Source: Bordetella parapertussis (lineage in GTDB: Bacteria; Pseudomonadota; Gammaproteobacteria; Burkholderiales; SG8-39). From it: a stretch of 64,000 bases of DNA. Made by a program: the position numbers and the translations under genes. Shown piece by piece: positions 618-29,660 of this stretch (the first letter of the stretch is position 1; the number at the start of each line of letters is the position of its first letter). The notes under the pieces were generated by a model that made no database searches, had not been told where the DNA came from, and was given only the letters and a program-made list of their open reading frames with translations. The stretch covers positions 4,842 through 68,841 of the forward strand of contig CAMDFL010000001.1 in NCBI GenBank assembly GCA_945897475.1, written 5' to 3'.

Positions 618-1247
618 TTATTCGCAAGCGTTGAATTTTCTCGCCTGACAATCCGTCGCGAGTTTTTTGGCTTCTCCGATTTGTTGTGGGGATAGGCGTT
701 TAGAAAGAGTATTGATCTCATTGGCACTGGCATTCAGTTGAGCAACACTAACGCTGAACCACATAAGCGCTCGGATATCGTCTTTAAGGACGCCGTAGCC
801 ATCCCGGTACATTACCCCAAGGGCATACTGCGAAAGTGCGTGACCCGCCTGCGCGAGTGGCGCCCAAAGTTTTATTGCACTCGTGTAGTCTTTTTTGAGT
901 GCCGCTGCCATGCCATCTTGATAAGCCTTGGCAGTTTTAGGATCGTCTTGCTGGGGAGGTAATCCTTGGTTGTTAGTTGGATCGCTGGCTATCGAGCCTT
1001 TTTCAGCCAGGCTTTGCAGTAAAAACAATGCTGCCAAATAGTCTTGCTTGCTGGCTGCTTCGGTGGCTTTTTGATAATTATTTTCCTTAGTGGGATTTTG
1101 TTTTGCACCCATCTGCGCCAAAGGCAGCCACAGCCTATATGCGCTGGCGTAATCCTTCGAGATAGCAGCAGCCAACCCATCTTCATACGGTCCAGCCACT
1201 GCATTACCGAAAAGCAGGCACAGCGACACGAACGACAATCTTTTCAT
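618..1247 (-). CDS. Secreted Sel1-like (SLR/TPR-type) repeat protein
   Basis: 209-aa ORF with a signal-peptide-like N-terminus (MKRLSFVSLCLLFGNAVAG). It has repeated 'KDY.SA..LW.PLAQ.G' units and a C-terminal 'SQYALGVMYRDGYGVLKDDIRALMWF' typical of Sel1 repeats. Confidence 0.7.
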   Translation of the reverse strand: MKRLSFVSLCLLFGNAVAGPYEDGLAAAISKDYASAYRLWLPLAQMGAKQNPTKENNYQKATEAASKQDYLAALFLLQSLAEKGSIASDPTNNQGLPPQQDDPKTAKAYQDGMAAALKKDYTSAIKLWAPLAQAGHALSQYALGVMYRDGYGVLKDDIRALMWFSVSVAQLNASANEINTLSKRLSPQQIGEAKKLATDCQARKFNACE

Positions 1248-1572
1248 CTCAAAATCCCTCAGATCCTGGCGGCAGGTAAATTTTATGGCTGCCCGTTAAA
1301 AAATAGCTTGGTGTGTTTGTTGCGGGGCTTACCCCGGGTGAATTCGTCGGTCTGTTAATCCAGTAATCCAGTGTAGACGCAAGAAAGAATAAAGTGCTGC
1401 AGAAACTGTAAACCAAACCGGGGGCCTCAACCAACACAAGTGCGGCATGATGCGGATAAGAGGCTTTTTACCCCAAAGCGACGTTTTGCCCCATCAATAC
1501 CTCGGGGTGGTGTTTCAGCGCGCCGGCCATACTACAATTTGAGCCCGGTATTGCCTTTGCTGGCCCAAAATA

Positions 1573-3249
1573 ATGCTGATCAATGTACTCAAGCGCGTGC
1601 TTCGCTCGCTGATCGAACGCGGCAAACCACGCAGCGCTCCGGCCGTGCCAGCGGAGATTTTGACCGCAGAGCTGCCAGGCCTCCTCGATCAGGCGCGCTT
1701 TGCCCACCGTAACGGCAACTTGGATGAGGCCTTGCGCGCCTATGAATGCGCCTTAAAACTCATATCACCCGCGCAGACGCAAGCTCGCTCGGCCGTGGTG
1801 GTGAACATGGGGGTCATCCTGCGCGAGCAGGTTCGATTGCCGCAGGCTATCGCTTGTCTGCGCGAAGCCATAGTCATTTGTCCGCGAGTGGCCATCGCAC
1901 ATTACAACCTTGGTCTGATTTTGTACGAGATGGGCGAGTCCAGTGAAGCTGAGGTCGAGTTGAATGCCGCCATCGAAATCGCGCCGGATTTTCAGGCGGC
2001 CCACAGCACACTGCTTTGCCTGTATGGCCTCACCCGAAGTGAAAATCCCGAACGCGTTCTGGCGCAACACCGTCGTTGGGCCGAGAAATTCGCCGATCCG
2101 CTGACGTCGATGGCGCCCGCGCATGCCAATGACCGATCGATCGATCGACGGCTCACCGTGGGATATGTATCGGCGGACTTCAAGGAACATTCAGTGGCGC
2201 GTTTTATCAGTCCGATTCTCGCCAATCATGACCGTGCCCGGTTCCGCGTGATCTGTTATGACAACTGGGCTGATGGCGATGCGACTACCGAACGCCTGCG
2301 CGGCTACGCGGATACCTGGAGAAAGATCGATGCTCTCGATGACGAGAATGCCGCCCAACTGGTGCGTGACGATGGCGTCGATATTCTTGTGGATCTTTCC
2401 GGCCACACCACCGGCAATCGCCTGTTGATGTTCGCTCGCAAACCGGCTCCGGTACAGGCGAGCTGGATGGGTTACATGTGCACTACCGGCATGCTGGCCA
2501 TGGATTGGCGCATTACCGACGCGAATCTCGATCCACCAGATGCAAGCGATAGCTGGTACGCCGAGCGCCTGATGCGCATCGGCTGCGCGGTTGCGTTCGA
2601 GCCCCATCCCCACAGCCCGGCGGTCAATGAGTTGCCTGCGCTCCAAAAAGGATTCGTGAGGTTTGGGTCATTCAATAACTACACCAAGATTGGTGACCAG
2701 GTGATAAGTCTGTGGAGTCGCGTGCTCGCCGCGCTGCCGCAATCCAGATTGATGCTGGTATCCCTTGGCGGCGATGATCCGCAGATCAAGGCGGCGATCG
2801 CTGCGCGTTTCGAACGCCTGACTTCGACGCCAGGCGTATCAAACAGAGTCGAGGTCATTGGGCGTCGCTCACCTGAGGATTTTCTGCGCATGTTTCACCA
2901 GGTGGACATCGCCTTGGATCCATTCCCCTATAGCGGAGGGACCACCAGCCTGCATACACTATGGATGGGGGTGCCGATTGTTGCTATCGAGGGAAGTACG
3001 GAATTGTCCCGAAGCACCAGCGGCATGCTCAAGGGGTGTGGGCTTCACGATTTAGTCGCTTATGGCGAGGAGGAGTACTTGAGCATCTCGATCGCGTTGG
3101 CCGCCGATCTTGGCCGGCTTGCCGAGCTTCGCGCAACGATCAGGCAGCGTCTCGCGCAGACTGCGCTCGGTAATGGAGCGCTGGTAACGCGCGAGCTTGA
3201 AGACGCGTATCGCATGATGTGGGCAGATTTTGTGCGCAGTGCTGGGTGA
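1573..3249 (+). CDS. TPR-repeat / GT41 (SPINDLY-OGT-like) glycosyltransferase
   Basis: 558-aa ORF with ATG at 1573. The N-terminus carries TPR-like repeats (LDEALRAYECALKL..., HYNLGLILYEMGESSEAEVELNAAIEIAPDF). The C-terminal domain has VGYVSADFKEHSV, DILVDLSGHTTGNR, RFGSFNNYTKI and LDPFPYSGGTTSLHTLWMGVPIVA, as in bacterial OGT-like GT41 proteins. Confidence 0.8.
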   Translation: MLINVLKRVLRSLIERGKPRSAPAVPAEILTAELPGLLDQARFAHRNGNLDEALRAYECALKLISPAQTQARSAVVVNMGVILREQVRLPQAIACLREAIVICPRVAIAHYNLGLILYEMGESSEAEVELNAAIEIAPDFQAAHSTLLCLYGLTRSENPERVLAQHRRWAEKFADPLTSMAPAHANDRSIDRRLTVGYVSADFKEHSVARFISPILANHDRARFRVICYDNWADGDATTERLRGYADTWRKIDALDDENAAQLVRDDGVDILVDLSGHTTGNRLLMFARKPAPVQASWMGYMCTTGMLAMDWRITDANLDPPDASDSWYAERLMRIGCAVAFEPHPHSPAVNELPALQKGFVRFGSFNNYTKIGDQVISLWSRVLAALPQSRLMLVSLGGDDPQIKAAIAARFERLTSTPGVSNRVEVIGRRSPEDFLRMFHQVDIALDPFPYSGGTTSLHTLWMGVPIVAIEGSTELSRSTSGMLKGCGLHDLVAYGEEEYLSISIALAADLGRLAELRATIRQRLAQTALGNGALVTRELEDAYRMMWADFVRSAG

Positions 3250-3382
3250 CCGGCAGGTAAAACGAGATGGCTGAGTCGTGCGTAGAAAATGTTTGGCTTA
3301 AAGCCCTGCGGGCGCAAATGGCGCAGGCTAGAATGCTCGTGATTTAGGTTGCTTACGCGCGTATCAGGGAGAATTAAAAAGA

Positions 3383-3619
3383 ATGGCTGATCTCGAAAGC
3401 TTTATCGTCAATTTCACCAATGCGGTGGATTTTCAAGAGCAGGTTGAAATGCGCGGCGACACCGTTCTTGCCGAACTGCCCGAATGGGATTCGCTCGCCG
3501 CGCTCGGGGCGATCATCATGTTCGATACCGACTACGGCTTGACCATAACCGGTAATGACTTGAGAAACTGTGCGACGGTCCATGACCTGTTCGTTTTGAT
3601 TCAAACCAAGGCGAAGTAG
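3383..3619 (+). CDS. Acyl carrier protein (stand-alone, non-FAS type)
   Basis: 78-aa acidic ORF with GGGAG about 11 nt upstream of the ATG. 'EWDSLAAL' contains the DSL phosphopantetheine-attachment motif. Confidence 0.8.
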   Translation: MADLESFIVNFTNAVDFQEQVEMRGDTVLAELPEWDSLAALGAIIMFDTDYGLTITGNDLRNCATVHDLFVLIQTKAK

Positions 3620-3625
3620 GCTGCT

Positions 3626-4660
3626 ATGGCGTTATCGAGCATACAAAACGTCCGGTACCGCGGCGTGGTTTCGTGCGTGCCAAAATCCATCATTTCAAAT
3701 CTTGACTGCCCGCCCGAGAAAAGATCGGAGCGCGAGCGCCTGGTTCGCAATATAGGCATCGAGCAGCGCCGTATCTGCTACCCATGGCAATATTTCTCCG
3801 ATCTGGCGGTGGCCGCTGCGGAAAAGCTCCTCGGCGAGCTCAAGTGGGCGCGCGAGGAGGTCGATGCGCTTATCGTCGTAACCCAGTCCCCCGATTACCT
3901 CATCCCTGCCACCGCGATCATTATTCAGGACCGTCTCAAGTTAAAAACCTCGATTCCGGCCTTCGATATCAACCTGGGCTGCTCCGGGTATCCGTATGGC
4001 TTGTATGTGCTTGGGTCCATGATGTCCTCCGGCGCAATTAAAAAAGGCCTGGTGCTGATCGGCGATAAATGCGCGGTGCTGACCGAGCCGCTGTTTTCCG
4101 ACTGCGGTACGGCGACGGCGCTCGAATACGACCCGACTGCGCCACCGATGCACTTCGACCTCAACAGCGACGGCAGCGGCTACCGCGCCATCATTCTTCC
4201 GATCGGCGGGCATCGCGCGCCAACCGAAATCCATCACCTGATCCCGCTTTTGGACGAGAGCGGCGAGCGGCGTCGTGCCGCAGACCTGGTCCTGGATGGA
4301 GCAGCGGTGTTGAATTTCTCGATATCGCGGGTGCCGCCCGCGGTAAGAGAGGTGTGCGAGGCTACTGGCACGTCGCTCGCCGATATCGACTTTCTGGTGT
4401 TCCACCAGGCCAATCGCATGATCAACGAGACCATCCGCAAGAAGCTGGGCTTGACCCCGGACAAGGTGCCCTCCACTCTGGCGGACTTCGGCAACACCAG
4501 TTCGGCATCAATTCCGCTGACCATGACCACGCGCCTCCGCGAGCAACTTGGCGCCGAGCGCAAGCGCCTGCTGCTGTGCGGCTTCGGCATTGGGCTCTCA
4601 TGGGCCACCTGCATCCTGGAGACCGACCGCATCTGCATACCCGAATTACTGGAAATATGA
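3626..4660 (+). CDS. 3-oxoacyl-ACP synthase III (KAS III / FabH-like)
   Basis: 344 aa. The Cys-His-Asn triad contexts are present: 'INLGCSGYPYG', 'VFHQANRMI' and 'FGNTSSASIPL'. The gene starts 6 nt after the ACP stop. Confidence 0.9.
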   Translation: MALSSIQNVRYRGVVSCVPKSIISNLDCPPEKRSERERLVRNIGIEQRRICYPWQYFSDLAVAAAEKLLGELKWAREEVDALIVVTQSPDYLIPATAIIIQDRLKLKTSIPAFDINLGCSGYPYGLYVLGSMMSSGAIKKGLVLIGDKCAVLTEPLFSDCGTATALEYDPTAPPMHFDLNSDGSGYRAIILPIGGHRAPTEIHHLIPLLDESGERRRAADLVLDGAAVLNFSISRVPPAVREVCEATGTSLADIDFLVFHQANRMINETIRKKLGLTPDKVPSTLADFGNTSSASIPLTMTTRLREQLGAERKRLLLCGFGIGLSWATCILETDRICIPELLEI

Positions 4661-5412
4661 ACACGGATCCATTCAGCCTCGAAGGCAAGCGCATTTTGGT
4701 AACCGGCGCCTCATCGGGGATTGGAAGGCAGGTGGCGGTCTCATGCGCGGCGATGGGAGCGACGCTGGTCATTACGGGGCGAAATGAAGCACGCCTTCAA
4801 GAGACTTTTCTGCAACTGGAAGGCGCCGGGCATACGACCGTAACGGCCGATTTATGCGCGGCTGAAGAGCGCGCCCGCCTAGCCGACGCCGCGCTCGCCA
4901 TCAATGGCGTCGCGCATTGCGCCGGCATCACCGCGATCGTTCCTTTCAGGATGATTGCCGAGAAGCACATGAATGAAATGTTCGACACCAATTTTCGCGC
5001 GCCGATTCTGCTGACGCAGCGTCTGGTGGCAAAAAAGCAAGTGTTACCCGGCGGTTCCATCGTATTCATCGCAGCGACCGCCGCGCTGATAGGGCCGACC
5101 GCGACCGGCATGTATGCCGCGAGCAAGGCGGCGCTGATCTCCGCCGCCCGCGTGCTTGCGCTCGAATTGGGCGCGAAGCAGAAAATCAGGGTGAATTGCG
5201 TCGCACCCGGCTATACGCGTACCCCGATGCTGGAAGGCTTTGACAGCCAGGGGACGTCTATGCAGGCCAACTATGCGCTTGCGCCGCTGGGACTTGGGGA
5301 GCCTGCCGATGTCGCCAACGCAGTTGTTTTTTTTCTGTCGGACGCGAGCCGCTGGATTACCCGGGCCACCTTCGCGGTTGACGGCGGCCTGACTTCCCGA
5401 GTCAGCTGTTGA
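4657..5412 (+). CDS. Short-chain dehydrogenase/reductase (FabG-like)
   Basis: An in-frame ATG at 4657 overlaps the KAS III stop (ATGA). Motifs are 'ILVTGASSGIGRQV' (TGxxxGxG) and 'MYAASKAAL' (YxxxK). The longer 4069 ORF start lies out of frame inside KAS III and is rejected. Confidence 0.85.
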   Translation: MNTDPFSLEGKRILVTGASSGIGRQVAVSCAAMGATLVITGRNEARLQETFLQLEGAGHTTVTADLCAAEERARLADAALAINGVAHCAGITAIVPFRMIAEKHMNEMFDTNFRAPILLTQRLVAKKQVLPGGSIVFIAATAALIGPTATGMYAASKAALISAARVLALELGAKQKIRVNCVAPGYTRTPMLEGFDSQGTSMQANYALAPLGLGEPADVANAVVFFLSDASRWITRATFAVDGGLTSRVSC

Positions 5413-5419
5413 GGGGAGC

Positions 5420-6169
5420 ATGAATAGCAAGCACCCTTTTAGGCTGGACGGCAAAACCATTCTCGTCAGCGGCGCTTCGTCGGGACTCGGTCGCCAAACC
5501 GCGATCAGTTGCTCGCACATGGGCGCCAAACTTTTTATCACCGGGCGGGACAGCGAACGCCTCGCGGTGACCCTAGCCGAGTTGAGCGGGGATGGGCACC
5601 GCGTGGCAGTCGCCGATCTGACCTTGGCAGACGATATCAACCGCCTGGTCGATGAGTGCGGCAAGATAGACGGCGTATTTCACGGCGCCGGGGTGAGGGG
5701 CCTTGCGCCGATAAAACAGATCTCCGAAAAGTTCGTACAACACGTTTTCGCCAGCAATTACTTCGCGCCGATGCTGCTCACACAGCGATTGCTTTCCAAG
5801 AGATCCATTCAGCAAGGCGGGTCCATCGTATTCATGTCGTCCACCGCAGCGCACCTCGGCGTACACGGCGTCGGCGTGTATTCGGGCACCAAAGCTGCGC
5901 TGCTGGCCAGCATGCGCTGCCTGGCGAATGAACAAGGTAGAAATAATATACGTGCGAACTGCCTTTCCCCCGATCTGGTTGAGACGCCCATGGTTGTCAC
6001 CATCGACACTGTGGATACCAAGGAATGGATTGAAATGCAGCGTAATCGCCACCCCTTGGGCCTGGGCGCGCCCGAAGATGTTGCCAATGCCGCCATTTAT
6101 CTGTTGTCAGACGCGAGCCGCTGGGTTACCGGGACAACTCTCATCATGGATGGCGGGGTCACTTTTTAA
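5420..6169 (+). CDS. Short-chain dehydrogenase/reductase (FabG-like, paralogue of the previous gene)
   Basis: 249 aa with 'ILVSGASSGLGRQT' and 'VYSGTKAAL'. It is clearly similar along its length to the 4657-5412 product. Confidence 0.9.
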   Translation: MNSKHPFRLDGKTILVSGASSGLGRQTAISCSHMGAKLFITGRDSERLAVTLAELSGDGHRVAVADLTLADDINRLVDECGKIDGVFHGAGVRGLAPIKQISEKFVQHVFASNYFAPMLLTQRLLSKRSIQQGGSIVFMSSTAAHLGVHGVGVYSGTKAALLASMRCLANEQGRNNIRANCLSPDLVETPMVVTIDTVDTKEWIEMQRNRHPLGLGAPEDVANAAIYLLSDASRWVTGTTLIMDGGVTF

Positions 6170-6180
6170 CGGAGCAGCAA

Positions 6181-6816
6181 ATGGAAAATCTGATCATTGT
6201 CGGCGCAGGCGGTATGGGACGGACCATTTATGCGCAATGTAAAAGCGATGACGCCATAGGACGGGAGTGGCTGGTCAAGGGTTTTCTGGATGATCGATCA
6301 AAAATTCTCGCCGGTTATGGAACCCACGTGGGAATTATCGGCGACCCGCAGACTTATGTGCCCCTGTCAGATGACAGATTTGTCGTCGCGCTGGGAGATC
6401 CCAAGGAAAGAGAACGCTACGCGGCGCCTTTATTGGAGAAGAACGCCAACTGCATCAATCTGCTTACGGAATACACGCGCGGCGACAATGTGGTGCTGGG
6501 CAAAGGCAATATATTCGAGCGCAAGGTCTATTTGTCATCGGATATTCGTATCGATGACTTCGTCATCATCTGCGCTCTCACGATTGTCGGGCATGATGTG
6601 CATATTGGGTCTTACGCCCATATTGGCAGTTTCGTGATGATAGGCGGATGGGTCGATATCGGCCCTGGCGTGACCATCCATCCGCATTCCACCGTCCTGC
6701 CGAAAGTAAAAATCGGCGCGGGCGCCACGGTGGGCGCGGGAAGCGTGGTGATGCGCGACGTGCCACCCGGGGTTACGGTGCTTGGCAATCCCGCGAAAAT
6801 TTTCGAGTTCAAGTAA
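6181..6816 (+). CDS. NeuD/PglD-type sugar N-acyltransferase (left-handed beta-helix, hexapeptide repeats)
   Basis: 211 aa. The N-terminus 'MENLIIVGAGGMGRTIY' is a PglD_N-like Rossmann-ish domain. The C-terminus has hexapeptide repeats (IGSYAHIGSFVMIGGWVDIGPGVTIHP...IGAGATVGAGSVV) and ends 'GNPAKIF'. Confidence 0.85.
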   Translation: MENLIIVGAGGMGRTIYAQCKSDDAIGREWLVKGFLDDRSKILAGYGTHVGIIGDPQTYVPLSDDRFVVALGDPKERERYAAPLLEKNANCINLLTEYTRGDNVVLGKGNIFERKVYLSSDIRIDDFVIICALTIVGHDVHIGSYAHIGSFVMIGGWVDIGPGVTIHPHSTVLPKVKIGAGATVGAGSVVMRDVPPGVTVLGNPAKIFEFK

Positions 6817-6841
6817 GGCAGGCAAGCGCCTCATCGTTCGC

Positions 6842-7960
6842 ATGTTATCCCCCTTGACCCAGCGTGACTATTTCTCGGAAGAGGTTCTCGCCCTAGAGAA
6901 CGAGCGCTTGTTCGGGCGCCTGTGGATATTCGCGGCCCTCAGACAACTGCTGGTGCAACCCAACTCATTCGCAACCCGCACCATAGGCGGTGTGCCGCTG
7001 GTGCTGCAGAATTGCGGTGGCGTTATCAAGGCCTTCGAGAATCAATGTTTGCACCGGCAAATGCCGTTGCAATGGGAGGACTACGGCAAGCGGCCACTGG
7101 TGTGCCGTTACCACGGCTGGAGCTACGACGGAGATGGCGCGCCGAAACATATTCCCGATCGGGAACAGCTCTACCGCTATCCCGAACAGGAGACAGCGGG
7201 CTTGCGTCTTCGCCAATTCGCAGTCGAATCTGTGGGCGAGCTGGTATTTGTCAACCTCGGTAAAAATCCGCCACCCATCGCCGAGCAATTCAGCGAGACC
7301 CTTATTGACAGGCTTGCCGCGGCATCCGCAGCTTTCGACGACGAGGTCATGCATACCCGCATTGCCGCGAATTACAACTGGAAGCTTAATTTCGAGAACG
7401 TGTTGGACGGCAACCATGTCCGTTACTTGCATCCGGCCACCTTCACGCCCTATCTGCAGGCCGCGTCAGAGGCGCGCCAGGGCAATTGGGCCGAGACGCC
7501 GGCGGCAATGGCGCCGGATATTGATAACTGCCGCCTGCAGGACTTGAGCTATGAATCGAAGTCCGGCTTCAAGGTGGTGAAGCGCTTCTGGCATCGCGAC
7601 GTGGCCCGCTTTGGTGGCGACGGTGTTTTTTACACCTTCTCCATTTATCCCAATGTAAATTTCATTTCCGTCGGCGGCTACTATTTTCTTATTCAACAAT
7701 TCAATCCGGTGGCGCCGGGGAAAACCGAAGTCAGCTTATCGCTGATGACGGCCAGGAAACTTCGCCGTATCCCCGCCTCAGCGGCAATATTGTGGGGCAC
7801 CATGCGCGGTGAGAAAGCGGTTCTCGACGAGGACATACGCGCGCTGGAAAAACTCCAGGCAGGCCTGCATGGCGACGGTCGCCCGGCGCGCCATGGCGAT
7901 TATGAGAAACAGCTGATGATGAACCACGTTATTTATCGCAAACTGCTGGCCGCGCCGTGA
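6842..7960 (+). CDS. Rieske [2Fe-2S] non-heme-iron oxygenase, alpha-subunit type (copy 1)
   Basis: Start chosen at ATG 6842 (MLSPLTQRDYF...) by alignment with the paralogue at 8624. The Rieske motif is 'CLHRQ-x14-CRYHGW' (CxH-x16-CxxH). The mononuclear-iron motif is 'ENVLDGNHVRYLH' (Dx2Hx4H). Confidence 0.85.
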   Translation: MLSPLTQRDYFSEEVLALENERLFGRLWIFAALRQLLVQPNSFATRTIGGVPLVLQNCGGVIKAFENQCLHRQMPLQWEDYGKRPLVCRYHGWSYDGDGAPKHIPDREQLYRYPEQETAGLRLRQFAVESVGELVFVNLGKNPPPIAEQFSETLIDRLAAASAAFDDEVMHTRIAANYNWKLNFENVLDGNHVRYLHPATFTPYLQAASEARQGNWAETPAAMAPDIDNCRLQDLSYESKSGFKVVKRFWHRDVARFGGDGVFYTFSIYPNVNFISVGGYYFLIQQFNPVAPGKTEVSLSLMTARKLRRIPASAAILWGTMRGEKAVLDEDIRALEKLQAGLHGDGRPARHGDYEKQLMMNHVIYRKLLAAP

Positions 7961-8580
7961 GTAAAGGGCTGCTGATTATTGGCGCAGGCGACCTGTTCCG
8001 GGGTGTTGCTTTGCAGTTTGTGCGGCAGCAACCGAATCGTAAAATAGAAATACTGGAATTGAAATGGGACGAAGCAGAGGAGCTTCAAAGCGGATTGCTG
8101 GATCTTTATCCCCCCGCTGATTGGGATCTGTTTGCGGCGACTGGAATGGGCGGCATGAATTTCGTCCGTCTCGGCCTTTTCTCGCAGGCAAAGCAGCGAG
8201 GGTTCAAGTGTGAAACATTCATTCACCCAAGCGCGGTGGTCGATCCCAATGCGACGGTCGGGCAAAATTGCTATGTCGGCGAAAACGTCGTGATTGAAGC
8301 CGCCGCACGGATCGACTTTAACGCCGTCATCGGGGCGCGCAGCGTCATCGCATACGGCGCCAAGGTCGGGTCATCTGCCTGGATCGGGGCCAATTGCTTT
8401 CTCGGCGCCGCTTCAAGTGTCGGTTCGCATTGCGTCATCGACGTCGGTGTGATGATCGCGGCGGGCGTGAAGGTCGGGAAATTCTGCAATTTGCAGATTG
8501 CCAGGAACTACTCTGTAGATGTCCCGGATAAGACCTTCCATCACGAAATGTTCGATCAGCCAGTGAGAATCTATGCTTGA
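7957..8580 (+). CDS. Divergent NeuD-like hexapeptide-repeat protein (copy 2)
   Basis: 207 aa. The GTG start overlaps the Rieske stop (GTGA). The N-terminus is 'GLLIIGAGDLF'. The C-terminus has LbH repeats (VGQNCYVGENVVIEAAARIDFNAVIGARSVIAYGAKVGSSAWIGANCFLG...). The GNPAK C-terminal motif of copy 1 is absent and the protein ends 'PVRIYA'. Confidence 0.7.
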   Translation: MSKGLLIIGAGDLFRGVALQFVRQQPNRKIEILELKWDEAEELQSGLLDLYPPADWDLFAATGMGGMNFVRLGLFSQAKQRGFKCETFIHPSAVVDPNATVGQNCYVGENVVIEAAARIDFNAVIGARSVIAYGAKVGSSAWIGANCFLGAASSVGSHCVIDVGVMIAAGVKVGKFCNLQIARNYSVDVPDKTFHHEMFDQPVRIYA

Positions 8581-8623
8581 ACATTTCCTGCGCCAGAACC
8601 GCGCCCGGTAGCGGCCCTTCGAT

Positions 8624-9778
8624 ATGCTTTCTCGAATGAAGCCGGAGTTTTACCTGTCGGATGAAATATTTCGCCGGGAGCAGGAAAGCCTGTTCAAGCG
8701 CTTGTGGATCTTCTATGGCTTGAAGACGATGCTGGCCGAACACAATGCGTTTATTGCCCGAAACATCGGCGGCATTCCGGTTGTGGTGCAGAACTTCGAC
8801 GGTGAACTGAGGGCATTCGAAAATATTTGTGTCCATAGACAGAACGCACTTCAGTGGGAAGAATCTGGGAAAAGACCCTTGGTCTGCCGCTATCACGGCT
8901 GGGGTTATGACGCGGATGGATGGGCGCGCAATATTCCGGCGCATGACGAAATCTACCGCTATGCTGAAGAGGAGCGCGCAGGCCTGCGCTTGCGGCGATT
9001 TTCTCTTGAGGTTATCGGCAATCTGGTCTTTGTCAATCTATCGCCTGATCCCTTGCCGCTGACAGAACAATTTACCGGCGAGTTCATCGAGTCTCTCCGC
9101 GACAGTTCCAACGCTTACGATGGCGAGGTGTTGATCGCAAAGCTCAAAACCCGCTTCAACTGGAAACTGGCGTATGAAAATCTGCGCGACGGCAACCACC
9201 CGCGCCATGTGCATGCGCAGACGCTCGCCAAGGATGTCAACTTTCAGGCCTTTGTCGACGAAGCCCAGCATCGCCGGGCCGAGCAGGTCTGCGCTGGCTC
9301 CATGGCCGGCGACCGGGCACAACAAATGGATTTGTTGCGCAGTTTCAGCGTCGGCGGACCCGATACGGCATTAAAGGAGCTCAAGCCCTACGAATGGCAT
9401 GGGGCGGTCGAGCGCTTCGGCAGCCTCGACTACTATTACAACTGGCTGGCTTATCCCAATTTGCATATAGCTTCCGGGTCTGGAGGGTATTCATTTACCT
9501 TGGAGCAGCACAATCCGGTGGCGCCTGGCGTAACCGAATTGACCGTTTATTGGTTGACTGCCAAGAAAAAGCGCCCGTATCCCGCCATGCCGGCGGTGTT
9601 GCTTGCGTCGATCGAGGTCGGCTATCAGGTGTTGGAGGAGGATATTAAAGTCATGGAGATGGTCCAAAAGAATTTGCACGCCGAAGCGCCGCTGCCGCGC
9701 CAGGGCGATTACGAGCATGCCAACAAGTTGCTTGAGAAGTGGTATGCCGATCTGATGGATGGCCAATTTGAAATCTAA
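8624..9778 (+). CDS. Rieske [2Fe-2S] non-heme-iron oxygenase, alpha-subunit type (copy 2)
   Basis: 384 aa with 'CVHRQ-x14-CRYHGW' and 'ENLRDGNHPRHVH'. By eye it is roughly half identical to the 6842-7960 product over the whole length. Confidence 0.9.
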   Translation: MLSRMKPEFYLSDEIFRREQESLFKRLWIFYGLKTMLAEHNAFIARNIGGIPVVVQNFDGELRAFENICVHRQNALQWEESGKRPLVCRYHGWGYDADGWARNIPAHDEIYRYAEEERAGLRLRRFSLEVIGNLVFVNLSPDPLPLTEQFTGEFIESLRDSSNAYDGEVLIAKLKTRFNWKLAYENLRDGNHPRHVHAQTLAKDVNFQAFVDEAQHRRAEQVCAGSMAGDRAQQMDLLRSFSVGGPDTALKELKPYEWHGAVERFGSLDYYYNWLAYPNLHIASGSGGYSFTLEQHNPVAPGVTELTVYWLTAKKKRPYPAMPAVLLASIEVGYQVLEEDIKVMEMVQKNLHAEAPLPRQGDYEHANKLLEKWYADLMDGQFEI

Positions 9779-10388
9779 GCTTGTAGTCGGCGCCGGCGAC
9801 TTCCTTGAGATTGCTTTTCATGCCTGGAAGGAAAAAGATCCCGCCATTGCCGTTGAAAAACTGGAAATCACGCAGGACGAAAACCACAGCTTCGACCTCG
9901 GTTTTCTCGACGGCTACTTGCCGGAGGAAACCTCGATGTTCGCGGCATTCGACAATCGCTTTCTAAACTTCAAGCGGCTTGAATTGATGGGCGCTATAAA
10001 ATCCAGGGGTTTCTGCATGGATGCGTTTATAGGTGGCGGGGCAATTGTCGGCGCCGGTGTGAAAATTGGTGAAAATTCTTTCGTTTCGGAAGGCGCGGTG
10101 ATTGGCGCGGCGGCAATCCTCCAGTACAACATCTACCTCGGTGCTCGCGCCGTAGTTGGATACGCCGCGCAGATCGGGCACTCAGCCTGGATCGAAGCCG
10201 CAGTCGTGCTCGGCAGGCGAGCGCGAATCGGCGCCCACACCACGCTTGGCCTCGGCGTGTCAGTTGCGGATAACATTCAAGTTGGGCGCATGTGCCTGAT
10301 TGAGGATCCAGGGCAGTATTGTGAAAACATTCCTGCGAAAACGTTCTGCAAGCCGTCCTTCGAGGGGCCGATTCGAATTTTCAACTGA
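9759..10388 (+). CDS. Divergent NeuD-like hexapeptide-repeat protein (copy 3)
   Basis: 209 aa. ATG 9759 overlaps the end of the preceding Rieske gene by 20 nt. It has 'KLVVGAGDFL' followed by LbH repeats (IGGGAIVGAGVKIGENSFVSEGAVIGAAA...). It ends 'PIRIFN', like copy 2. Confidence 0.7.
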   Translation: MANLKSKLVVGAGDFLEIAFHAWKEKDPAIAVEKLEITQDENHSFDLGFLDGYLPEETSMFAAFDNRFLNFKRLELMGAIKSRGFCMDAFIGGGAIVGAGVKIGENSFVSEGAVIGAAAILQYNIYLGARAVVGYAAQIGHSAWIEAAVVLGRRARIGAHTTLGLGVSVADNIQVGRMCLIEDPGQYCENIPAKTFCKPSFEGPIRIFN

Positions 10389-10653
10389 CTCGGCGGCACG
10401 CTGGATCACCGCAGCATTGTGCCGCGATCAGCATTCAGTCGATATCGCCATAGAGCACGGTATCGTAGTCGCAGCATGAATGCTGGCGCAGGCGGAACCG
10501 GCAGCGTGGATTTATCTTCAGGATGTGTTGTTCGTCACTTCGAGCAGGTCGTGCGCGTAGTGATATACGGTAAGGGCCACGCGCGGTGAGTATTGGCTTA
10601 GCAGGCGCTGCCCTTCGCTGTGGGGTTTGGCGAAAATGTCTCCCAACTAAAGT

Positions 10654-11847
10654 CTAATTAATCGCTTCAGCAAGGGCCGAACAGACTCGACGGATGCTCT
10701 CTTGAGTGAGCTCAAGGTGGAACGGCAGGCCCAGCATTCGCGGCCCCAGGGATCTAGCCACCGGCAAATCGAATGCCTCTATCCCGGCATAGGCCGGGTG
10801 ATCAGGCAGCAGAGGCAAATACCAGGCTCGGGTCTCGATACCTTGTGCGGTGAGAGCGCTTACTAGCGCATCGCGACTGACCCCGGGCTGCAGCAGCAAC
10901 TGAAAAATTGTGTAGGCGCCATCCAGCGGGCGTGCCTGCAGGGTGATCTCGGGGGAGTTGCGCAACAGTTCGTCGCAATAAGCTTGGTTCAGTGCCTCAC
11001 GCAGCCGGCGGCGTTCGGGCCAGCGCGTCAGCGCGGCGAGTCCAACGGCCGCATGCAATTCACTCAATTTGGCGTTGCCGCCCACATCCGGCGCGTGACC
11101 GTTGGACGGGTCTATGCCGAAATTGGAAAGTCGCCGCACCCGCTCGATGAATGCCGCGTCGCGCGACACCACCAATCCACCTTCGCCAATTCCCAGAGCC
11201 TTGGTCGCGTGCATGCTGAATGCAAGCACAATACGCTCGCCCGGCTGCTGATTGCCAAACGCGCCCGCCGCGTCCACTAGAACCGGAATGCCTGAGCGCT
11301 CGGAAAAATCGTCCCACTCGGCGGCGGGCAGAGGACATCCCAACGCGGCGACAGGCAGGACACAGTCGATTTTTGTTGTTGTCATTGCCGCGCGAGCAAT
11401 CGCCGGTGTCAACACCCAGCTGTGCGCGTCAATATCGGCGATGATGGGCCGCAGTCCGGCACGAAGAACCGCGGCAGCTGTCGCGACAAAGGTGAACGCC
11501 GGAATCAGCACATGGGCGCGTGGTGGCAGTCGTAACGCGGCAAGAGCGAGCTCCAACGCCATAGTGCCGTTGGCAACCGTGCTTAGAAAAGGGGCTGGCG
11601 CCGGGAACAGGGATTGCACACTGTGTTCAAAGCGCCGTACTAAAGGGCCGAAATTCGTATACCAGCGCGCGTTGTCTATCTCAGCTAGGAATGGTTCCAA
11701 ATCGGCGCGTCGCGGCAAATCGGGAACGAGAAGCGGAATTCTTGGGTGATTCAATTCAAATGCCGCCGCGGCCGAACGATAGCGTCTGGATAGAGCTTGG
11801 CGGGGATTTTCATAGGTAATTCTCCCGCGAATCGTAATACCAATCAA
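10654..11847 (-). CDS. DegT/DnrJ/EryC1/StrS-family PLP aminotransferase
   Basis: 397-aa ORF. 'FSMHATKALGIGEGG' is the family's PLP-lysine motif (SxHxxKxxxxGEGG), and 'IPLLVPDLP' lies near the N-terminus. The only in-frame start I see is TTG at 11847, so the start is uncertain. Confidence 0.85.
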   Translation of the reverse strand: MIGITIRGRITYENPRQALSRRYRSAAAAFELNHPRIPLLVPDLPRRADLEPFLAEIDNARWYTNFGPLVRRFEHSVQSLFPAPAPFLSTVANGTMALELALAALRLPPRAHVLIPAFTFVATAAAVLRAGLRPIIADIDAHSWVLTPAIARAAMTTTKIDCVLPVAALGCPLPAAEWDDFSERSGIPVLVDAAGAFGNQQPGERIVLAFSMHATKALGIGEGGLVVSRDAAFIERVRRLSNFGIDPSNGHAPDVGGNAKLSELHAAVGLAALTRWPERRRLREALNQAYCDELLRNSPEITLQARPLDGAYTIFQLLLQPGVSRDALVSALTAQGIETRAWYLPLLPDHPAYAGIEAFDLPVARSLGPRMLGLPFHLELTQESIRRVCSALAEAIN

Positions 11848-11963
11848 CGGCTAATGTTCTTCGGATAATTTCCTCCAACTCCGACACCTTGGTGATTTTG
11901 CCGCACATCAGCGATGTCGTCTCATCGCCAAGGACAGGCAAGCGGCAAAGATTCCTGAATTCC

Positions 11964-13481
11964 CTAGGCATGTGCCAATTTTCCAAAGGCCTCGTCAAGC
12001 GCGCGCCTTGTGTCATTCAAGCGCTGGCGCCGATTGTCTAGCCATGCGCGATCATTATCCAATTGGTCGAGTTGCCTGGCCAGCATTCGTTTGACTTCCG
12101 CAGGCTGCGGCCCTCCCATGCCTCGACTCGATCGCACCATGTTATCCGCCGATAAGGCCTCGCGAAATCGAGCTTCGCTCAAGGGCAATCGAGATTCGGC
12201 ATCGGGCCCCGAGCCATTTACGTCGGAATAAATGCGAACCGCTTCCGCATAGGGAATTTGCGCAGGCTTCAAGCCGTGTCCGCGACCATAGTTCACCAGT
12301 TCCGAGGCGAAATGGTGCCCGGCGCGAAACGCTACGCCGGCATCGCGCTGCAGGATGTCGGCCAGTTCGGTGGTGGTCGAGTAATCGGCATCGATTTCGG
12401 CACGCGCGCGTTCCACATTGAGCGTCAATGAGCGTACCGCGGCATCGATCATGTCGAAAAATTTGGCCACCGATTGCAGCGCGATCAAGGCTTCATTGCC
12501 GCGGTGTTCGAGTAATCCGGAGCCTATGTTGTGCGCGACGAATAAACACGCCTGTGCCTCGCCAAGAACCTTGCTTGCCAAGTGCCGCGCCGCCACCAGC
12601 ACGATCGGATTGCGTTTCTGCGGCATGATGGTACTGGGGCCAGTGAGCCCACCTTCCCGCAGGACGATCCATGGCGAGGTCTGCCGATACTGTGCCAGGA
12701 TGTCGTTGATGAGCGCATCCCCGGTGAGGGCGCCCGATGCGGCGATGCCGGCAAGCTCGACGCTCATGTCGCAGGGTGCGACGTGGTTTGCATCGAGAGA
12801 ATTCTCCACCACGCCATCGAAACCCAGCAGTTCGGCGAGGCGCGGACGGTCTATGGCGAAGCTTGATGTGCCCAGGGCCCCGGCCCCCAATGGCGAAAGA
12901 TTCACCCTTGCCCACGCCTCGCGCATGCGTGCCGCGGTGCGCTCCAAGGCCGCGGCAAACGCCAGAAGATAGTGGCCGAAGGTGGTGGGCTGCGCTTGCA
13001 CGTTGTGGGTATATGCGGGAACTAGATCGTTTTGATGACGCTGCGCAAGCGCAAGCATTCCCGCCCGAATCCGTGCAAGGCTGTCGTAGGTGTCGAGAAA
13101 CTGGTCGCGAATGAACAGGCGATGAGTAGTCGCCAGCATGTCCTGGCGGCTACGTCCCGAATGCACGCGTGTCACTTCTGCGCCGCCTGCTTCGACCAAG
13201 AGCCGCTCAATGATCATGTAATTGCCGGGACGCTCGGCGCCAGGCGCGGCGCCCGCCTCAAGGACCTGTGTCACCGCATTGGCGATGATTTTTGCAAGTG
13301 GTGCTCTGATCACACCTTGCTCGGCGAGCATCACCGCCGAAGCCTTGTTCATCTCCCCCATCCAGTGGAAGGCATCGTGCCCATCCGAGGAGGTAGTAAT
13401 GGGTCTAATTTCCTCGCCCATCAGATAGAATTCGCTGCCCTGCGTTGCCTGGCCCATGGAGATTTGCCGACTTTCCATCAT
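11964..13481 (-). CDS. Argininosuccinate-lyase-like fumarate-lyase superfamily protein (paralogue, not the canonical argH)
   Basis: 505 aa with 'GRSRQDMLAT', 'AYTHNVQAQPTTFGHY' and 'GPSTIMPQKRNP', the fumarase/ASL signature regions. The start may be one of several downstream ATGs, because only 46 nt separate 13481 from the divergent gene at 13528. Confidence 0.8.
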   Translation of the reverse strand: MMESRQISMGQATQGSEFYLMGEEIRPITTSSDGHDAFHWMGEMNKASAVMLAEQGVIRAPLAKIIANAVTQVLEAGAAPGAERPGNYMIIERLLVEAGGAEVTRVHSGRSRQDMLATTHRLFIRDQFLDTYDSLARIRAGMLALAQRHQNDLVPAYTHNVQAQPTTFGHYLLAFAAALERTAARMREAWARVNLSPLGAGALGTSSFAIDRPRLAELLGFDGVVENSLDANHVAPCDMSVELAGIAASGALTGDALINDILAQYRQTSPWIVLREGGLTGPSTIMPQKRNPIVLVAARHLASKVLGEAQACLFVAHNIGSGLLEHRGNEALIALQSVAKFFDMIDAAVRSLTLNVERARAEIDADYSTTTELADILQRDAGVAFRAGHHFASELVNYGRGHGLKPAQIPYAEAVRIYSDVNGSGPDAESRLPLSEARFREALSADNMVRSSRGMGGPQPAEVKRMLARQLDQLDNDRAWLDNRRQRLNDTRRALDEAFGKLAHA

Positions 13482-13527
13482 TTCATTTCGGTGATAATAA
13501 TTGCTGAATCACGGGATTCGGATAAAC

Positions 13528-14490
13528 ATGAAAATTATTTCCTTGCTTATATTCGCATTGATTGGGCTGGCGGCGCCGATGTCATCGACATTGGCCCAGT
13601 CGTACCCGGTCAAACCCATACGCTTGATGGTCCCCTTTGGATCGGGTAGCGGCTCGGATATCGCGGCGCGTTTTTTCGGCGATCAGCTCTCAGGCGTCAT
13701 CGGAGCGCCCTTTATCATCGAGAATCGCCCCGGCGCTAATGGCGTTATCGGCGTGATGGCGGCAAAGACCGCGCCCGCCGACGGCTATACACTATTGCTT
13801 GGGAGTTGGACCACTATCTCGGTTAATCCCATTGCAGTCAAAGACCTTGCCTACGACCCGGTGCAGGATTTCAAACCGATATCGGGCCTCACGCGCAGCA
13901 TGATCGGCATCGCGGTGCCGGGTGGTTCCGCCATCAAGTCTGTGGCCGATCTGGTGTCAATGGCCAAGGCCGGCAAACCGATCAACATCGGCACCTATTC
14001 CACCGGGTTTCACATCGTTCTGGAGTCGTTTAACGCGGCGGCGGGAATCAAGCTTGTCAACGTGCCTTATAAGGCTGCCGGCCAAGCGCATACCGATGTC
14101 ATGGGTAGTCAGATCGACGCATTAATGGATGGCACGACTTCGCTTGGCCCCATGTTGCGCTCCGCGAAACTGCGCCTGCTGGCCGCATCGGGTGAGCGGC
14201 GCGATGCGGCGTTTGCCGATGTGCCGACCTTCCGCGAAAGCGGCTACCCCGATTTTGTCGCCTGGGGGTGGTCGTCGTTTTTTGTTCGCACCGAGACGCC
14301 CGAGGAGGCCACGCATAAACTCGCCGATGCGATGCAAAAGGTACTGGCATTGAGCGCGACACAGGAATTCGCGAAGAAAAGTGGCTCCGAACTGATGCTG
14401 TTCGGACCGGCGGCTATGCGAAAATTCCAGTTAGATGAAATCGGCAAATTCCGCCGCGTCGCCGCCGCGGCAGGCATCAGGCCCGAATAG
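13528..14490 (+). CDS. Bug-family (TctC-like) tripartite tricarboxylate transporter substrate-binding protein
   Basis: Start chosen at ATG 13528 (MKIISLLIFALIGLAAPMSSTLA, a signal peptide), followed by 'QSYPVKPIRLMVPFGSGSGSD', the typical Bug N-terminal motif. Confidence 0.85.
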   Translation: MKIISLLIFALIGLAAPMSSTLAQSYPVKPIRLMVPFGSGSGSDIAARFFGDQLSGVIGAPFIIENRPGANGVIGVMAAKTAPADGYTLLLGSWTTISVNPIAVKDLAYDPVQDFKPISGLTRSMIGIAVPGGSAIKSVADLVSMAKAGKPINIGTYSTGFHIVLESFNAAAGIKLVNVPYKAAGQAHTDVMGSQIDALMDGTTSLGPMLRSAKLRLLAASGERRDAAFADVPTFRESGYPDFVAWGWSSFFVRTETPEEATHKLADAMQKVLALSATQEFAKKSGSELMLFGPAAMRKFQLDEIGKFRRVAAAAGIRPE

Positions 14491-14497
14491 GAAAAAC

Positions 14498-15697
14498 ATG
14501 TCCCAATCTCTACCTTTGCATCCGGTGTTCGATGACCCGAATATTCAAGCCATTCTGGCCCAGGAGTACGGGCGTATGTCCGATGCCGAATTTGTTCGCC
14601 GTAAGCTCGCTCTAGGCCTTGTCCTTGCCGAGCATGGCTGCGATACGGTACTTCTATGCGGTGAACAGCGGGTCGGCAGCGGCGTGCATTGGATCACCGG
14701 ATGGGCGACCACCACCGAGGCAATGGTTCTGCATATGCCTGGCGAACAGGATCTCATGTGGGTCGAGCACTACAACCACCTGCCTAACGCGCGCCGCATG
14801 GCGATTGGCGTCGATGTTCGTTGGGCCGAGCGCAAGGGCCCGGCACGCGCCATTGATGAATTGAAGAAACGCGGCGCAAGGCGCGTGGGTTTCATCGGCA
14901 ATCTTTCCTGGTCAAAAATGCGCGCCCTGGCCGATGCTTTCGATCTGGTGGATCTGAACGGCGACTACGCATGGCTGCGAATGCGTAAATCGGAGGAGGA
15001 AATCCAATGGATGCGAATCGGCGCCGCGTTGTCCGATCTGGGTATGGAGGCTCTGGCCAATGGTGCGCGGCCCGGAATGAGCGAGAGGGAGCTGGGCGCC
15101 ATGGTGGAGGCGGCCTATCAGCCGCTGGGGGGCGCCACCACCATTCATTTCATCGGCATCAACGACATGGCCAGTCCCACGCAATGCGTTCCGCCGCAAT
15201 ATCATTCCACCAGAACGCTGAAACGTGGCGACATGATGTTTGTTGAATTTACCGCGGCGTTCTGGGATGCCTCGGGACAGGTGCTGCGAAGTTTTACCGT
15301 GGATGCCGAACCCACGCCGCTGTTTCGCGATCTGTATGCCACGGCCGAAGCCGCGTTCAAGGCGATCACCGGGGTGTTGCGCGCAGGCGTATCGGCGCAG
15401 GAAATCGTCGATGCCTCATCGCTTATCGAGAAGGCGGGTTTCTCTACCTACGACGACATCCTGCACGGCTTTGGCGGAGGCTATTGGGCGCCGGTGCTCG
15501 GCTCAAACAGCCGGCCGTCTGGCCCGGTTCCGGATATGAGGCTGGAGGCGAATATGACCGTGGTGGTTCAGCCCAACGTGATCACCACCGATGAAAAGGC
15601 GGGCGTTCAATTTGGTGAGATGGTGCGCATCACCCCGGAGGGGTTCGAGCGCATGCACCATGCGCCTTCGGGGTTTCGGCGGATCGGCGCCTGGTAA
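14498..15697 (+). CDS. M24-family (creatinase/prolidase 'pita-bread' fold) protein with non-canonical metal site
   Basis: Start chosen at ATG 14498, preceded by AGGAAAAAC. It has a creatinase-like N-domain and a C-domain. The positions that align with the canonical ligand motifs read 'GDMMFVEFTAAFWDASGQ', 'HGFGGGYW', 'VVVQPN' and 'GEMVRIT'. Compare pepP at 43125. Confidence 0.75.
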   Translation: MSQSLPLHPVFDDPNIQAILAQEYGRMSDAEFVRRKLALGLVLAEHGCDTVLLCGEQRVGSGVHWITGWATTTEAMVLHMPGEQDLMWVEHYNHLPNARRMAIGVDVRWAERKGPARAIDELKKRGARRVGFIGNLSWSKMRALADAFDLVDLNGDYAWLRMRKSEEEIQWMRIGAALSDLGMEALANGARPGMSERELGAMVEAAYQPLGGATTIHFIGINDMASPTQCVPPQYHSTRTLKRGDMMFVEFTAAFWDASGQVLRSFTVDAEPTPLFRDLYATAEAAFKAITGVLRAGVSAQEIVDASSLIEKAGFSTYDDILHGFGGGYWAPVLGSNSRPSGPVPDMRLEANMTVVVQPNVITTDEKAGVQFGEMVRITPEGFERMHHAPSGFRRIGAW

Positions 15698-29556: not shown

Positions 29557-29660
29557 AAAATGCAGTGGACTGTTTTTGTGATCGGATTTTGTCGCCCGTG
29601 TCTGAGTGCTTGGCACTCGGGCGAATTCATCAAAACGAACCGGCCCGTGCCATCACTTCA

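Follow-up and report, generated by a model that had tools for sequence, protein, structure and literature searches.

What is made by a compact bacterial gene block that joins enzymes of acyl carrier protein (ACP) acylation to hexapeptide transferases and Rieske oxygenases? The block lies at positions 3383-10388 of a 64,000-nucleotide stretch of DNA (contig CAMDFL010000001.1 of assembly GCA_945897475.1; the whole of this stretch is called the window here), where ORF calls and annotation place nine tightly packed open reading frames (ORFs) on the plus strand, in agreement with the gene calls of the source metagenome contig (ENA ERZ27280251 k141_1210240, 77.9 kb). In order, they encode an ACP, a 3-oxoacyl-ACP synthase III (KAS III), two short-chain dehydrogenases/reductases (SDR1 and SDR2), a left-handed beta-helix (LbH) acyltransferase (LbH1), and two pairs of Rieske and LbH proteins (Rieske1, LbH2, Rieske2 and LbH3). 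We consider it likely that this block is the biosynthetic core of a viosamine-type protein O-glycosylation island, in the family of the a-type flagellin island of Pseudomonas aeruginosa. Gene identities, catalytic motifs, conservation of gene order and linkage to flagellar genes in other genomes were established in this analysis; we infer what reaction the Rieske/LbH pairs catalyse, how the second SDR contributes, which nucleotide carries the sugar, and that this organism uses flagellin as the acceptor.

Two characterised systems provide the framework for this reading. The viosamine island of Pseudomonas syringae pv. tabaci 6605, cited in PMC3927599 under GenBank AB499894, consists of vioA, acp, vioS (KAS III), vioR (reductase), vioB, vioM and vioT, and studies of mutants together with mass spectrometry revealed that it makes dTDP-N-(3-hydroxybutanoyl)-2-O-methylviosamine for flagellin (PMC3927599). 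According to the same paper, all of them have homologues in the PAK island of P. aeruginosa (PMC3927599). In strains PA103 and PAK, the genes between flgL and fliC are listed as an aminotransferase, ACP, 3-oxoacyl-ACP synthase, 3-oxoacyl-ACP reductase, transferase, 2Fe-2S ferredoxin, acetyltransferase, methyltransferase and glycosyltransferase (PMC4020848), and the glycan of PAK, so far only partly solved, has been described as heterogeneous, with chains of up to 11 sugars (PMC3958885). The core of the window has the same content in the same order as the published table (PMC4020848), with the orfF '2Fe-2S' protein as the counterpart of Rieske2 and the orfG 'acetyltransferase' as that of LbH3, both matched by composition and position rather than by protein alignment. 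Compared with PAK/PA103, the window adds a paralogous second Rieske/LbH pair and contains two SDRs in place of the single reductase of the PA103 table; it also has a glycosyltransferase of family GT41 with tetratricopeptide repeats (TPR) in place of the large GT2 enzyme (OrfN-type), a methyltransferase relic, and a site away from the flagellar cluster. The extra Rieske/LbH module, GT41 for GT2, the lost methyltransferase and the site are what distinguish it from the known islands in general. The PAK a-type island, orfA-orfN, was reportedly described by Arora and colleagues in 2001 (GenBank AF332547); to our knowledge, only orfA and orfN have been functionally tested in PAK.

The P. syringae island shares with the window an aminotransferase, ACP, KAS III, reductase and VioB-type acyltransferase, and its rml genes are likewise encoded elsewhere (PMC3927599). 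Unlike the window, it has no Rieske gene, no second LbH gene and only one SDR, and it carries VioT (1173 aa) and the 2-O-methyltransferase VioM. An initial annotation, made from the letters of the window, had proposed that ACP, KAS III and a reductase make a short 3-oxo- or 3-hydroxyacyl-ACP and that an LbH enzyme then passes the acyl group to an amine; this scheme is genetically established in P. syringae (PMC3927599), and LbH1 is nearest to VioB. The same annotation had argued that the locus has no characterised counterpart, a view overturned by the published PAK/PA103 island (PMC4020848), and that it is not a flagellin-glycan locus, a conclusion that is not supported: the GT41 gene at 1573-3249 was overlooked, the DegT aminotransferase gene was treated as optional, and the block is syntenic at 37-67% protein identity with islands inside flagellar clusters. 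The homologous block in a characterised locus that it regarded as decisive exists for seven of the nine genes. The island of A. avenae K1 was considered as a further counterpart and set aside, its composition being different.

Genes for acyl-ACP synthesis open the block. Family assignments throughout are based on Pfam and NCBIfam profile searches, and all expected catalytic motifs are present in the block, except that LbH2 and LbH3 are without the PglD-type catalytic His. The ACP gene (3383-3619; 78 aa) encodes a protein that found no match in the Pfam search and only weak matches to NCBIfam ACP profiles (E 0.007). Its DSL motif (residues 36-38) provides the Ser of the phosphopantetheine site, W35, D36 and S37 are invariant in an alignment of 64 distinct homologues, with L38 in 63 of them, and the protein shares 59-65% identity with the product of the small ORF found just before KAS III in flagellar islands; the corresponding ORF is named acp in P. 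syringae and orfB in PAK (PMC3927599, PMC4020848). The FabH-like KAS III (3626-4660; 344 aa), equivalent to VioS/OrfC, matches Pfam ACP_syn_III and ACP_syn_III_C and scores 209 bits against the NCBIfam FabH subfamily, under the cutoff; GCSG at 118, HQAN at 260 and GNTS at 289 supply the triad Cys118, His260 and Asn289, and identity to island homologues is 61-67%. The gene order and motifs quoted in the initial annotation were confirmed by these matches.

Both SDRs are FabG-like. SDR1 (4657-5412; 251 aa; Pfam adh_short and adh_short_C2), a predicted ketoreductase, has the Gly-rich cofactor motif TGASSGIG at 16 and the YxxxK motif YAASK at 153, and shares 55-59% identity with the SDR that comes first in the islands. 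Its real start is ATG 4657, overlapping the KAS III stop by 4 nt, and the source gene call gives the same 251 aa; a longer ORF at 4069-5412 (plus strand, 447 aa) was rejected as a gene, being SDR1 with a spurious 5' extension through KAS III in another frame. SDR2 (5420-6169; 249 aa; Pfam adh_short) carries SGASSGLG at 17 and YSGTK (YxxxK) at 154 and is 49% identical to SDR1 and 52-56% identical to the second SDR of the islands. A dedicated ACP, KAS III and 3-oxoacyl reductase, as expected of a viosamine-type island, are therefore represented by motifs and by 52-67% identity to island homologues. The second SDR is absent from the P. syringae island, while the pair is kept in all 60 related loci that carry the full core described below.

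LbH1 (6181-6816; 211 aa) is a clear member of the nucleotide-sugar 4-N-acetyltransferases typified by PglD, PerB, VioB and the acetyltransferase domain of PglB. It scores 161.9 bits against the NeuD/PglB/VioB profile TIGR03570 (cutoff 160.8), matches Pfam PglD_N and Hexapep, and has VioB of A. baumannii (7txp; E 2.6e-20) as its best solved relative, with PerB and the acetyltransferase domain of PglB next. In the alignment, His138-Asp139 falls on the catalytic residues, and identity to the Delftia, Xanthomonas and Pseudomonas dryadis islands is 47-51%. The profile, the VioB relationship and the His-Asp pair identify LbH1 as the VioB-type N-acyltransferase of a viosamine-type island. At the position of His138 in the LbH1 family alignment, Tyr occurs in 23 of 78 VioB-like island homologues, and because of this frequency a Tyr in place of the catalytic His may be compatible with activity in this family.

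The remaining functions expected of such an island flank the block. Upstream by 133 nt and on the same strand, the gene at 1573-3249 encodes a 558-aa protein with TPR_1/2/11/12 matches at residues ~31-145, N-terminal to a Glyco_transf_41 domain (Pfam, 158 bits). This TPR-GT41 protein is 61% identical to its equivalent in the closest relatives (loci L007-L009), 54% to that of L015 and 35-37% to the GT41 proteins of flagellum-linked islands in Delftia, Rhodoferax and Pseudacidovorax. Characterised GT41 members such as OGT and HMW1C glycosylate proteins, and the TPR-GT41 protein is predicted to be the soluble protein O-glycosyltransferase of the island. It stands where a VioT/OrfN-type GT2 would be expected, as it does in 29 of the 60 related loci, and no GT2 of that type was found in the window. 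A comparable architecture is known from FlmG of Caulobacter, a soluble flagellin O-glycosyltransferase of ~560-600 aa with N-terminal TPR and a C-terminal GT-B domain (PMC7591256), and from FlmQ, the predicted TPR-containing flagellin glycosyltransferase of Burkholderia cenocepacia (PMC4462625). The likeness to FlmG is drawn from the TPR-then-glycosyltransferase architecture, and FlmG uses pseudaminic acid.

From the downstream side, an ORF on the minus strand (10654-11847) converges on the block and encodes a VioA-like, pyridoxal phosphate-dependent sugar aminotransferase (Pfam DegT_DnrJ_EryC1, 225 bits; hereafter DegT). Among solved structures it is closest to 3ju7, DesI (2po3) and perosamine synthases, the last two of which are C-4 aminotransferases of NDP-4-keto-6-deoxyhexoses, and it is 42-67% identical to the DegT proteins of related islands; by family and relatives, it corresponds to the putative VioA-like enzyme of a viosamine-type island. 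No ATG occurs in this ORF upstream of codon 96, and the protein given in the source annotation is truncated to 302 aa; because family alignments begin near residue 35, the start is probably TTG 11754, which yields a protein of 366 aa (10654-11754). Just downstream of DegT, at 10527-10631 (minus strand), lies a relic of ~35 codons from the C-terminal part of an FkbM/Methyltransf_21 (MT21) methyltransferase gene. When the MT21 proteins of many islands were used as tblastn queries, this stretch alone was matched (the best matches show 53-67% identity over 24-32 aa). In loci L007-L009 the interval from LbH3 to DegT still holds an intact MT21 gene of 444 aa, so a sugar methylation step has probably been lost from this lineage.

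Comparative genomics tied the block to flagellar loci. With the Rieske alignment as seed and one genome per species, a scan retrieved 80 loci, which were annotated by tblastn; core statistics were taken from the 63 loci of at least 16 kb. Because the loci were seeded with Rieske, the counts describe the companions of the Rieske gene and not the frequency of Rieske genes in such islands. The full core of ACP, KAS III, SDR, SDR, VioB-like LbH1, Rieske and LbH was present in the same order in 60 of the 63, in genera including Xanthomonas, Pseudomonas, Delftia, Acidovorax, Massilia and Methylobacillus. DegT accompanied it in 56 of these 60 loci, methyltransferases in 53, and either a GT2 of ~1170 aa or a GT41 in 53 (24 with the large GT2, 29 with GT41). 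At least one flagellar gene was found within 10 kb in 31 of the 60. Such a location, in or beside flagellar genes, is expected of viosamine-type islands and is not seen in the window.

Individual loci make the association concrete. In Delftia, the order ACP-KAS3-SDR-SDR-LbH1-Rieske-(methyltransferase)-LbH is flanked on one side by fliC-fliC-fliD and a TPR-GT41 gene and on the other by DegT, a second GT41 gene and motAB. The block of Xanthomonas sacchari lies between fleQ and fliE and ends with a 1174-aa GT2, and that of P. dryadis lies between flgL and fliC, the position of the PAK/PA103 island, and ends with a 1173-aa GT2. Protein identity between the window and these three counterparts is 37-67% overall (ACP and KAS III 59-67%, SDRs 52-59%); for P. 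dryadis it is 37-61%, with DegT at 33%. Moreover, Paracidovorax valerianellae and Acidovorax sp. SUPP3334 have the identical nine-gene order with a flagellin gene ~0.9 kb from its start, and fliC and fliD lie next to it. The nine-gene order also occurs in Collimonas rhizosphaerae, Methylovorus sp. MM2, Xenophilus, Acidovorax spp. and several metagenome-assembled genomes (MAGs) of Burkholderiales. The closest relatives, L007-L012 (73-78% Rieske identity), have it as far as their contigs extend, and L007-L009 share the downstream flank of the window. A fortuitous juxtaposition of the genes, which the initial annotation had left to be checked, is excluded by the same order in dozens of species. 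The block is thus not an orphan pathway, and its annotation should read protein (flagellin-type) glycosylation island. Flagellin glycans influence the motility, immune recognition and virulence of plant and animal pathogens.

The product is most likely an NDP-4-amino-4,6-dideoxyhexose that is N-acylated with an ACP-derived 3-hydroxyacyl group. In the proposed route, DegT would aminate C-4 of an NDP-4-keto-6-deoxyhexose supplied by housekeeping enzymes encoded elsewhere, dTDP-4-keto-6-deoxyglucose being the likeliest substrate. KAS III and the dedicated ACP would provide acetoacetyl-ACP, one of the SDRs would reduce the 3-oxo group, whether still bound to the ACP or once transferred, and the VioB-like LbH1 would move the acyl group onto the 4-amino group of the sugar. 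These four steps appear supported by homology to the P. syringae system, where they were shown (PMC3927599). Each Rieske/LbH pair would then tailor the NDP-linked acyl sugar, C-H hydroxylation by the Rieske enzyme being the likeliest reaction, and its LbH partner would either bind and present the nucleotide sugar to the Rieske enzyme or add a further acyl group. Finally, the TPR-GT41 enzyme would place the finished sugar on Ser/Thr of a cytoplasmic target before export, most likely flagellin. That flagellin is indeed the acceptor in this organism is somewhat favoured, at lower confidence than the nature of the island.

The two Rieske/LbH pairs are the only biochemically unexplained part of the block, and our literature searches found nothing relevant on the function of such genes in flagellin islands. 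Rieske1 (6842-7960; 372 aa), for which 6842 is most likely the start, and Rieske2 (8624-9778; 384 aa), the canonical Rieske oxygenase of the islands, both match Pfam Rieske and Ring_hydroxyl_A. Each has the CxH (69) and CxxH (88) motifs. Alignment A1, of which both window copies are part, shows C69, H71, C88, H91, H192, H197 and D340 (Rieske2 numbering) to be invariant, so that the cluster ligands and the 2-His-1-carboxylate iron site of alpha-only Rieske non-haem-iron oxygenases are present in each. Rieske2 is 51-53% identical to the single Rieske protein of the Delftia, Xanthomonas and P. dryadis flagellar islands; more than 350 homologues were found (E ≤ 1e-10), and the 120 matches listed are all at least 50% identical.

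What these enzymes act upon is poorly indicated by the nearest solved structures, the stachydrine demethylase Stc2 and the carnitine monooxygenase CntA, because identity to Rieske2 is only ~20%. Stc2 and CntA resemble Rieske2 in the Rieske and catalytic-domain fold, in all metal ligands and in having no beta subunit; they differ in that the similarity is limited to the N-terminal half and that no reductase partner lies near the window genes. Presumably the substrate is an NDP-acylamino sugar or an acyl-ACP, and not a quaternary amine as in Stc2 and CntA. The AlphaFold model of Rieske2 has a predicted local distance difference test (pLDDT) value of 76.8. Residues 187-208 fall below 50 around the iron ligands His192 and His197, although both residues are invariant, and this region differs from all solved Rieske oxygenases. 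Public names of island Rieske proteins (P0109, P0126, P0133, P0137, P0140, P0161 and P0162) include 'ribosomal subunit interface protein', 'carnitine monooxygenase subunit' and 'GbcA glycine betaine demethylase'; gene context suggests that these are propagated misannotations.

The LbH partners are more divergent than LbH1. LbH2 (7957-8580; 207 aa, GTG start) overlaps the gene of its partner Rieske1 by 4 nt, and LbH3 (9759-10388; 209 aa) overlaps that of Rieske2 by 20 nt. Both match only Hexapep in Pfam and score 79 and 62 bits, respectively, against TIGR03570, under its cutoff of 160.8; hhalign nevertheless recognises them as remote relatives of the LbH1 family (probability 99.4%). LbH3 is 37-42% identical to the LbH protein that follows the Rieske gene in other islands. 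Its AlphaFold model (pLDDT 83.9) was matched by Foldseek to PerB (template modelling score, TM, 0.77), PglD (TM up to 0.71) and the PglB acetyltransferase domain, and the match includes the N-terminal domain. Foldseek and hhalign thus agree on the two-domain fold of PglD/NeuD-type enzymes, with an N-terminal nucleotide-sugar-binding domain and an LbH. LbH2 and LbH3 share this fold with PglD, PerB, VioB and the PglB domain, and differ from them by the replacement of the catalytic His by Tyr and by a conserved S-x-W motif. Across 94 members of the LbH2/LbH3 family, the general-base position is variable (A, P, S or Y), and in the S-x-W motif Ser is found in 83 and Trp in 91. As LbH2 and LbH3 lack the general-base His, the suggestion of the initial annotation that up to three acyl transfers take place is doubtful. 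Hydroxylation by the Rieske enzyme followed by acylation by its LbH partner is offered only tentatively, as a possibility somewhat short of even.

Is the second pair a local accident? Within the window, Rieske1 and Rieske2 are 44% identical, and LbH2 and LbH3 36%. Two or more Rieske genes are present in 17 of the 80 scan loci, and the Rieske1-type sequences form a monophyletic clade (n=17) confined to loci with two pairs. Median identity is 51% within the Rieske1 clade and 37% to the Rieske2 type. Given this separate clade and the low identity to the Rieske2 type, Rieske1/LbH2 is an old paralogue of Rieske2/LbH3, and islands with two pairs are a subtype that recurs. A recent tandem duplication as the origin of the second pair was rejected, the Rieske1 clade being separate across genera at ~37% identity to the Rieske2 type. 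The remaining interest of the locus lies in this uncharacterised cassette, which is a concrete target for experiments: a Rieske gene and a second LbH gene constitute a mobile pair that is conserved in Xanthomonas, Pseudomonas, Delftia, Acidovorax, Massilia and others, and some Burkholderiales carry two old paralogous pairs.

The pair has also been found apart from the rest of the island. In Xanthomonas translucens pv. cerealis (L057, 10001-11760), a lone Rieske/LbH pair lies between a purT-like gene and a Band_7 gene, and no ACP, KAS III or glycosyltransferase genes occur within 10 kb of it. In a Myxococcales MAG (L083, 941-8568), a Rieske gene, an LbH gene and an FkbM methyltransferase gene (MT21) are followed by a Wzx-like Polysacc_synt_3 gene, a GT2 gene and a PMT_2 gene. 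The lone pair of L057 and the polysaccharide-type context of L083 fit the idea of Rieske/LbH as a self-contained nucleotide-sugar module. A bolder version of this idea holds that Rieske/LbH is a portable two-protein cassette, in which a PglD-fold protein devoid of the general base and an alpha-only Rieske enzyme would modify an N-acyl amino sugar by hydroxylation or N-oxygenation before re-acylating it; the two anciently diverged copies would give a doubly tailored sugar, and GT41 may target a non-flagellar protein. We regard this as unlikely, though if true the doubly tailored sugar would be one not seen in any solved glycan.

Several observations weigh against a flagellin glycosylation island and have to be set beside the evidence above. 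Searches by tblastn with flagellin, FliD, MotA and related proteins found no flagellar genes in the 64-kb window, and no flagellar marker lies within 10 kb of 24 of the 29 GT41-type islands; because of these two results, flagellin as the acceptor is only inferred in this lineage. A search for sigma-28 promoters (TAAA-N14-16-GCCGA) gave three matches against 1.3 expected, none of them upstream of the island, and no FliA or sigma-54 promoter was recognised when the upstream regions were read by eye. No rml-type genes lie near the island, and the methyltransferase usual in such islands is present only as the relic. The pairs add further difficulties: no cognate reductase or ferredoxin for the Rieske proteins is encoded in the island or in the 64-kb window, and LbH2 and LbH3 have Tyr where PglD/NeuD-type enzymes have the catalytic His general base, so that their acyltransferase activity is uncertain. 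Furthermore, the link to PAK is drawn from the gene table in the literature together with the P. dryadis locus, and no P. aeruginosa protein is among the best 120 matches to the P. dryadis Rieske protein. With respect to the missing reductase, loci L007-L009 carry, ~9 kb beyond the downstream end of the island, a reductase of Fer2-FAD_binding_6-NAD_binding_1 architecture (~20556-21143, minus strand). This protein could perhaps supply the Rieske enzymes with electrons, and the window has no counterpart of it at the corresponding place.

The main alternative is that the block makes the same kind of acylated amino sugar for another destination, either a lipid-linked polysaccharide (O-antigen, capsule or exopolysaccharide) or a glycoprotein other than flagellin. 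The lack of flagellar genes in the window and the weak flagellar linkage of GT41-type islands both speak for it, as do the Wzx-like flippase, GT2 and PMT_2 genes beside the Rieske, LbH and MT21 genes of L083, and lipopolysaccharide and flagellin glycan pathways are known to have common components in some bacteria (Merino and Tomas review). Against it, the window contains no Wzx/Wzy, initiating transferase or polymerase, its sole glycosyltransferase is the soluble TPR-GT41, of a family whose characterised members act on proteins, and the identical nine-gene order adjoins fliC in Acidovorax. Overall, this alternative seems rather improbable. Much less room is left for a decaying, non-functional remnant displaced from a flagellar locus. 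Such an origin could account for the methyltransferase relic, the DegT gene that has no ATG start and was mis-called as truncated, and the position among housekeeping genes; all eleven ORFs are intact, however, with their catalytic residues kept, the same layout and flanks persist in L007-L012 and L015 at 57-78% Rieske identity, and values of GC content and third-codon-position GC content (GC3) are close to those of housekeeping genes. A remnant is accordingly very unlikely.

The view taken in the initial annotation, that the genes form an orphan small-molecule pathway for a multiply acylated, oxygenated metabolite unrelated to glycan loci, is scarcely credible now, and ranks lowest. It drew on the correct observation that the window contains no sugar dehydratase, nucleotidyltransferase, flippase, polymerase, nonribosomal peptide synthetase or polyketide synthase, the other genes of the window being annotated as housekeeping, and it could appeal to the uncharacterised chemistry of the Rieske/LbH pairs, on which literature searches found no paper. 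The want of a dehydratase or nucleotidyltransferase loses its force in view of the P. syringae island, which is also without rml genes, and a pathway remote from glycans is at odds with a glycosyltransferase and a sugar aminotransferase flanking the block, with LbH1 as a VioB-type nucleotide-sugar acyltransferase, and with synteny to flagellar glycosylation islands in more than 50 species. The viosamine-type glycosylation island remains the reading that we prefer.

Within the block, successive intergenic spacings are 6, -4, 7, 11, 25, -4, 43 and -20 nt, so that the largest gap is 43 nt and three start/stop overlaps occur, in keeping with the initial description of nine same-strand genes with gaps of at most 45 nt and three overlaps. 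A scan of 1200-12200 for sigma-70 promoters and intrinsic terminators gave nothing above the shuffled expectation, and Rfam at gathering thresholds had no match in the window. Island GC and GC3 are only marginally below those of the housekeeping genes, and for this reason no claim of recent horizontal transfer is made.

The rest of the window is core chromosome, including hemA-prfA-prmC, argH, hemCDXY, purD, purH, dusB, lptD-surA-pdxA-rsmA, glyS, lnt, miaB and several TctC genes. Divergent from the GT41 gene, at 618-1247 (minus strand), lies a gene for a 209-aa Sel1-repeat protein; relatives carry a major facilitator superfamily gene and an unknown 487-aa gene in its place, and the adjacency is not conserved. 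On the opposite side, beyond DegT, are a divergent second argininosuccinate-lyase-like gene (11964-13481, minus strand), a TctC receptor gene (13501-14490, plus strand) and a creatinase/M24-type peptidase gene (14435-15697, plus strand), a trio that also flanks the island in L007-L009. The other lyase gene of the window (28108-29616) scores far higher against Lyase_1 than the one in this trio (257 versus 108 bits).

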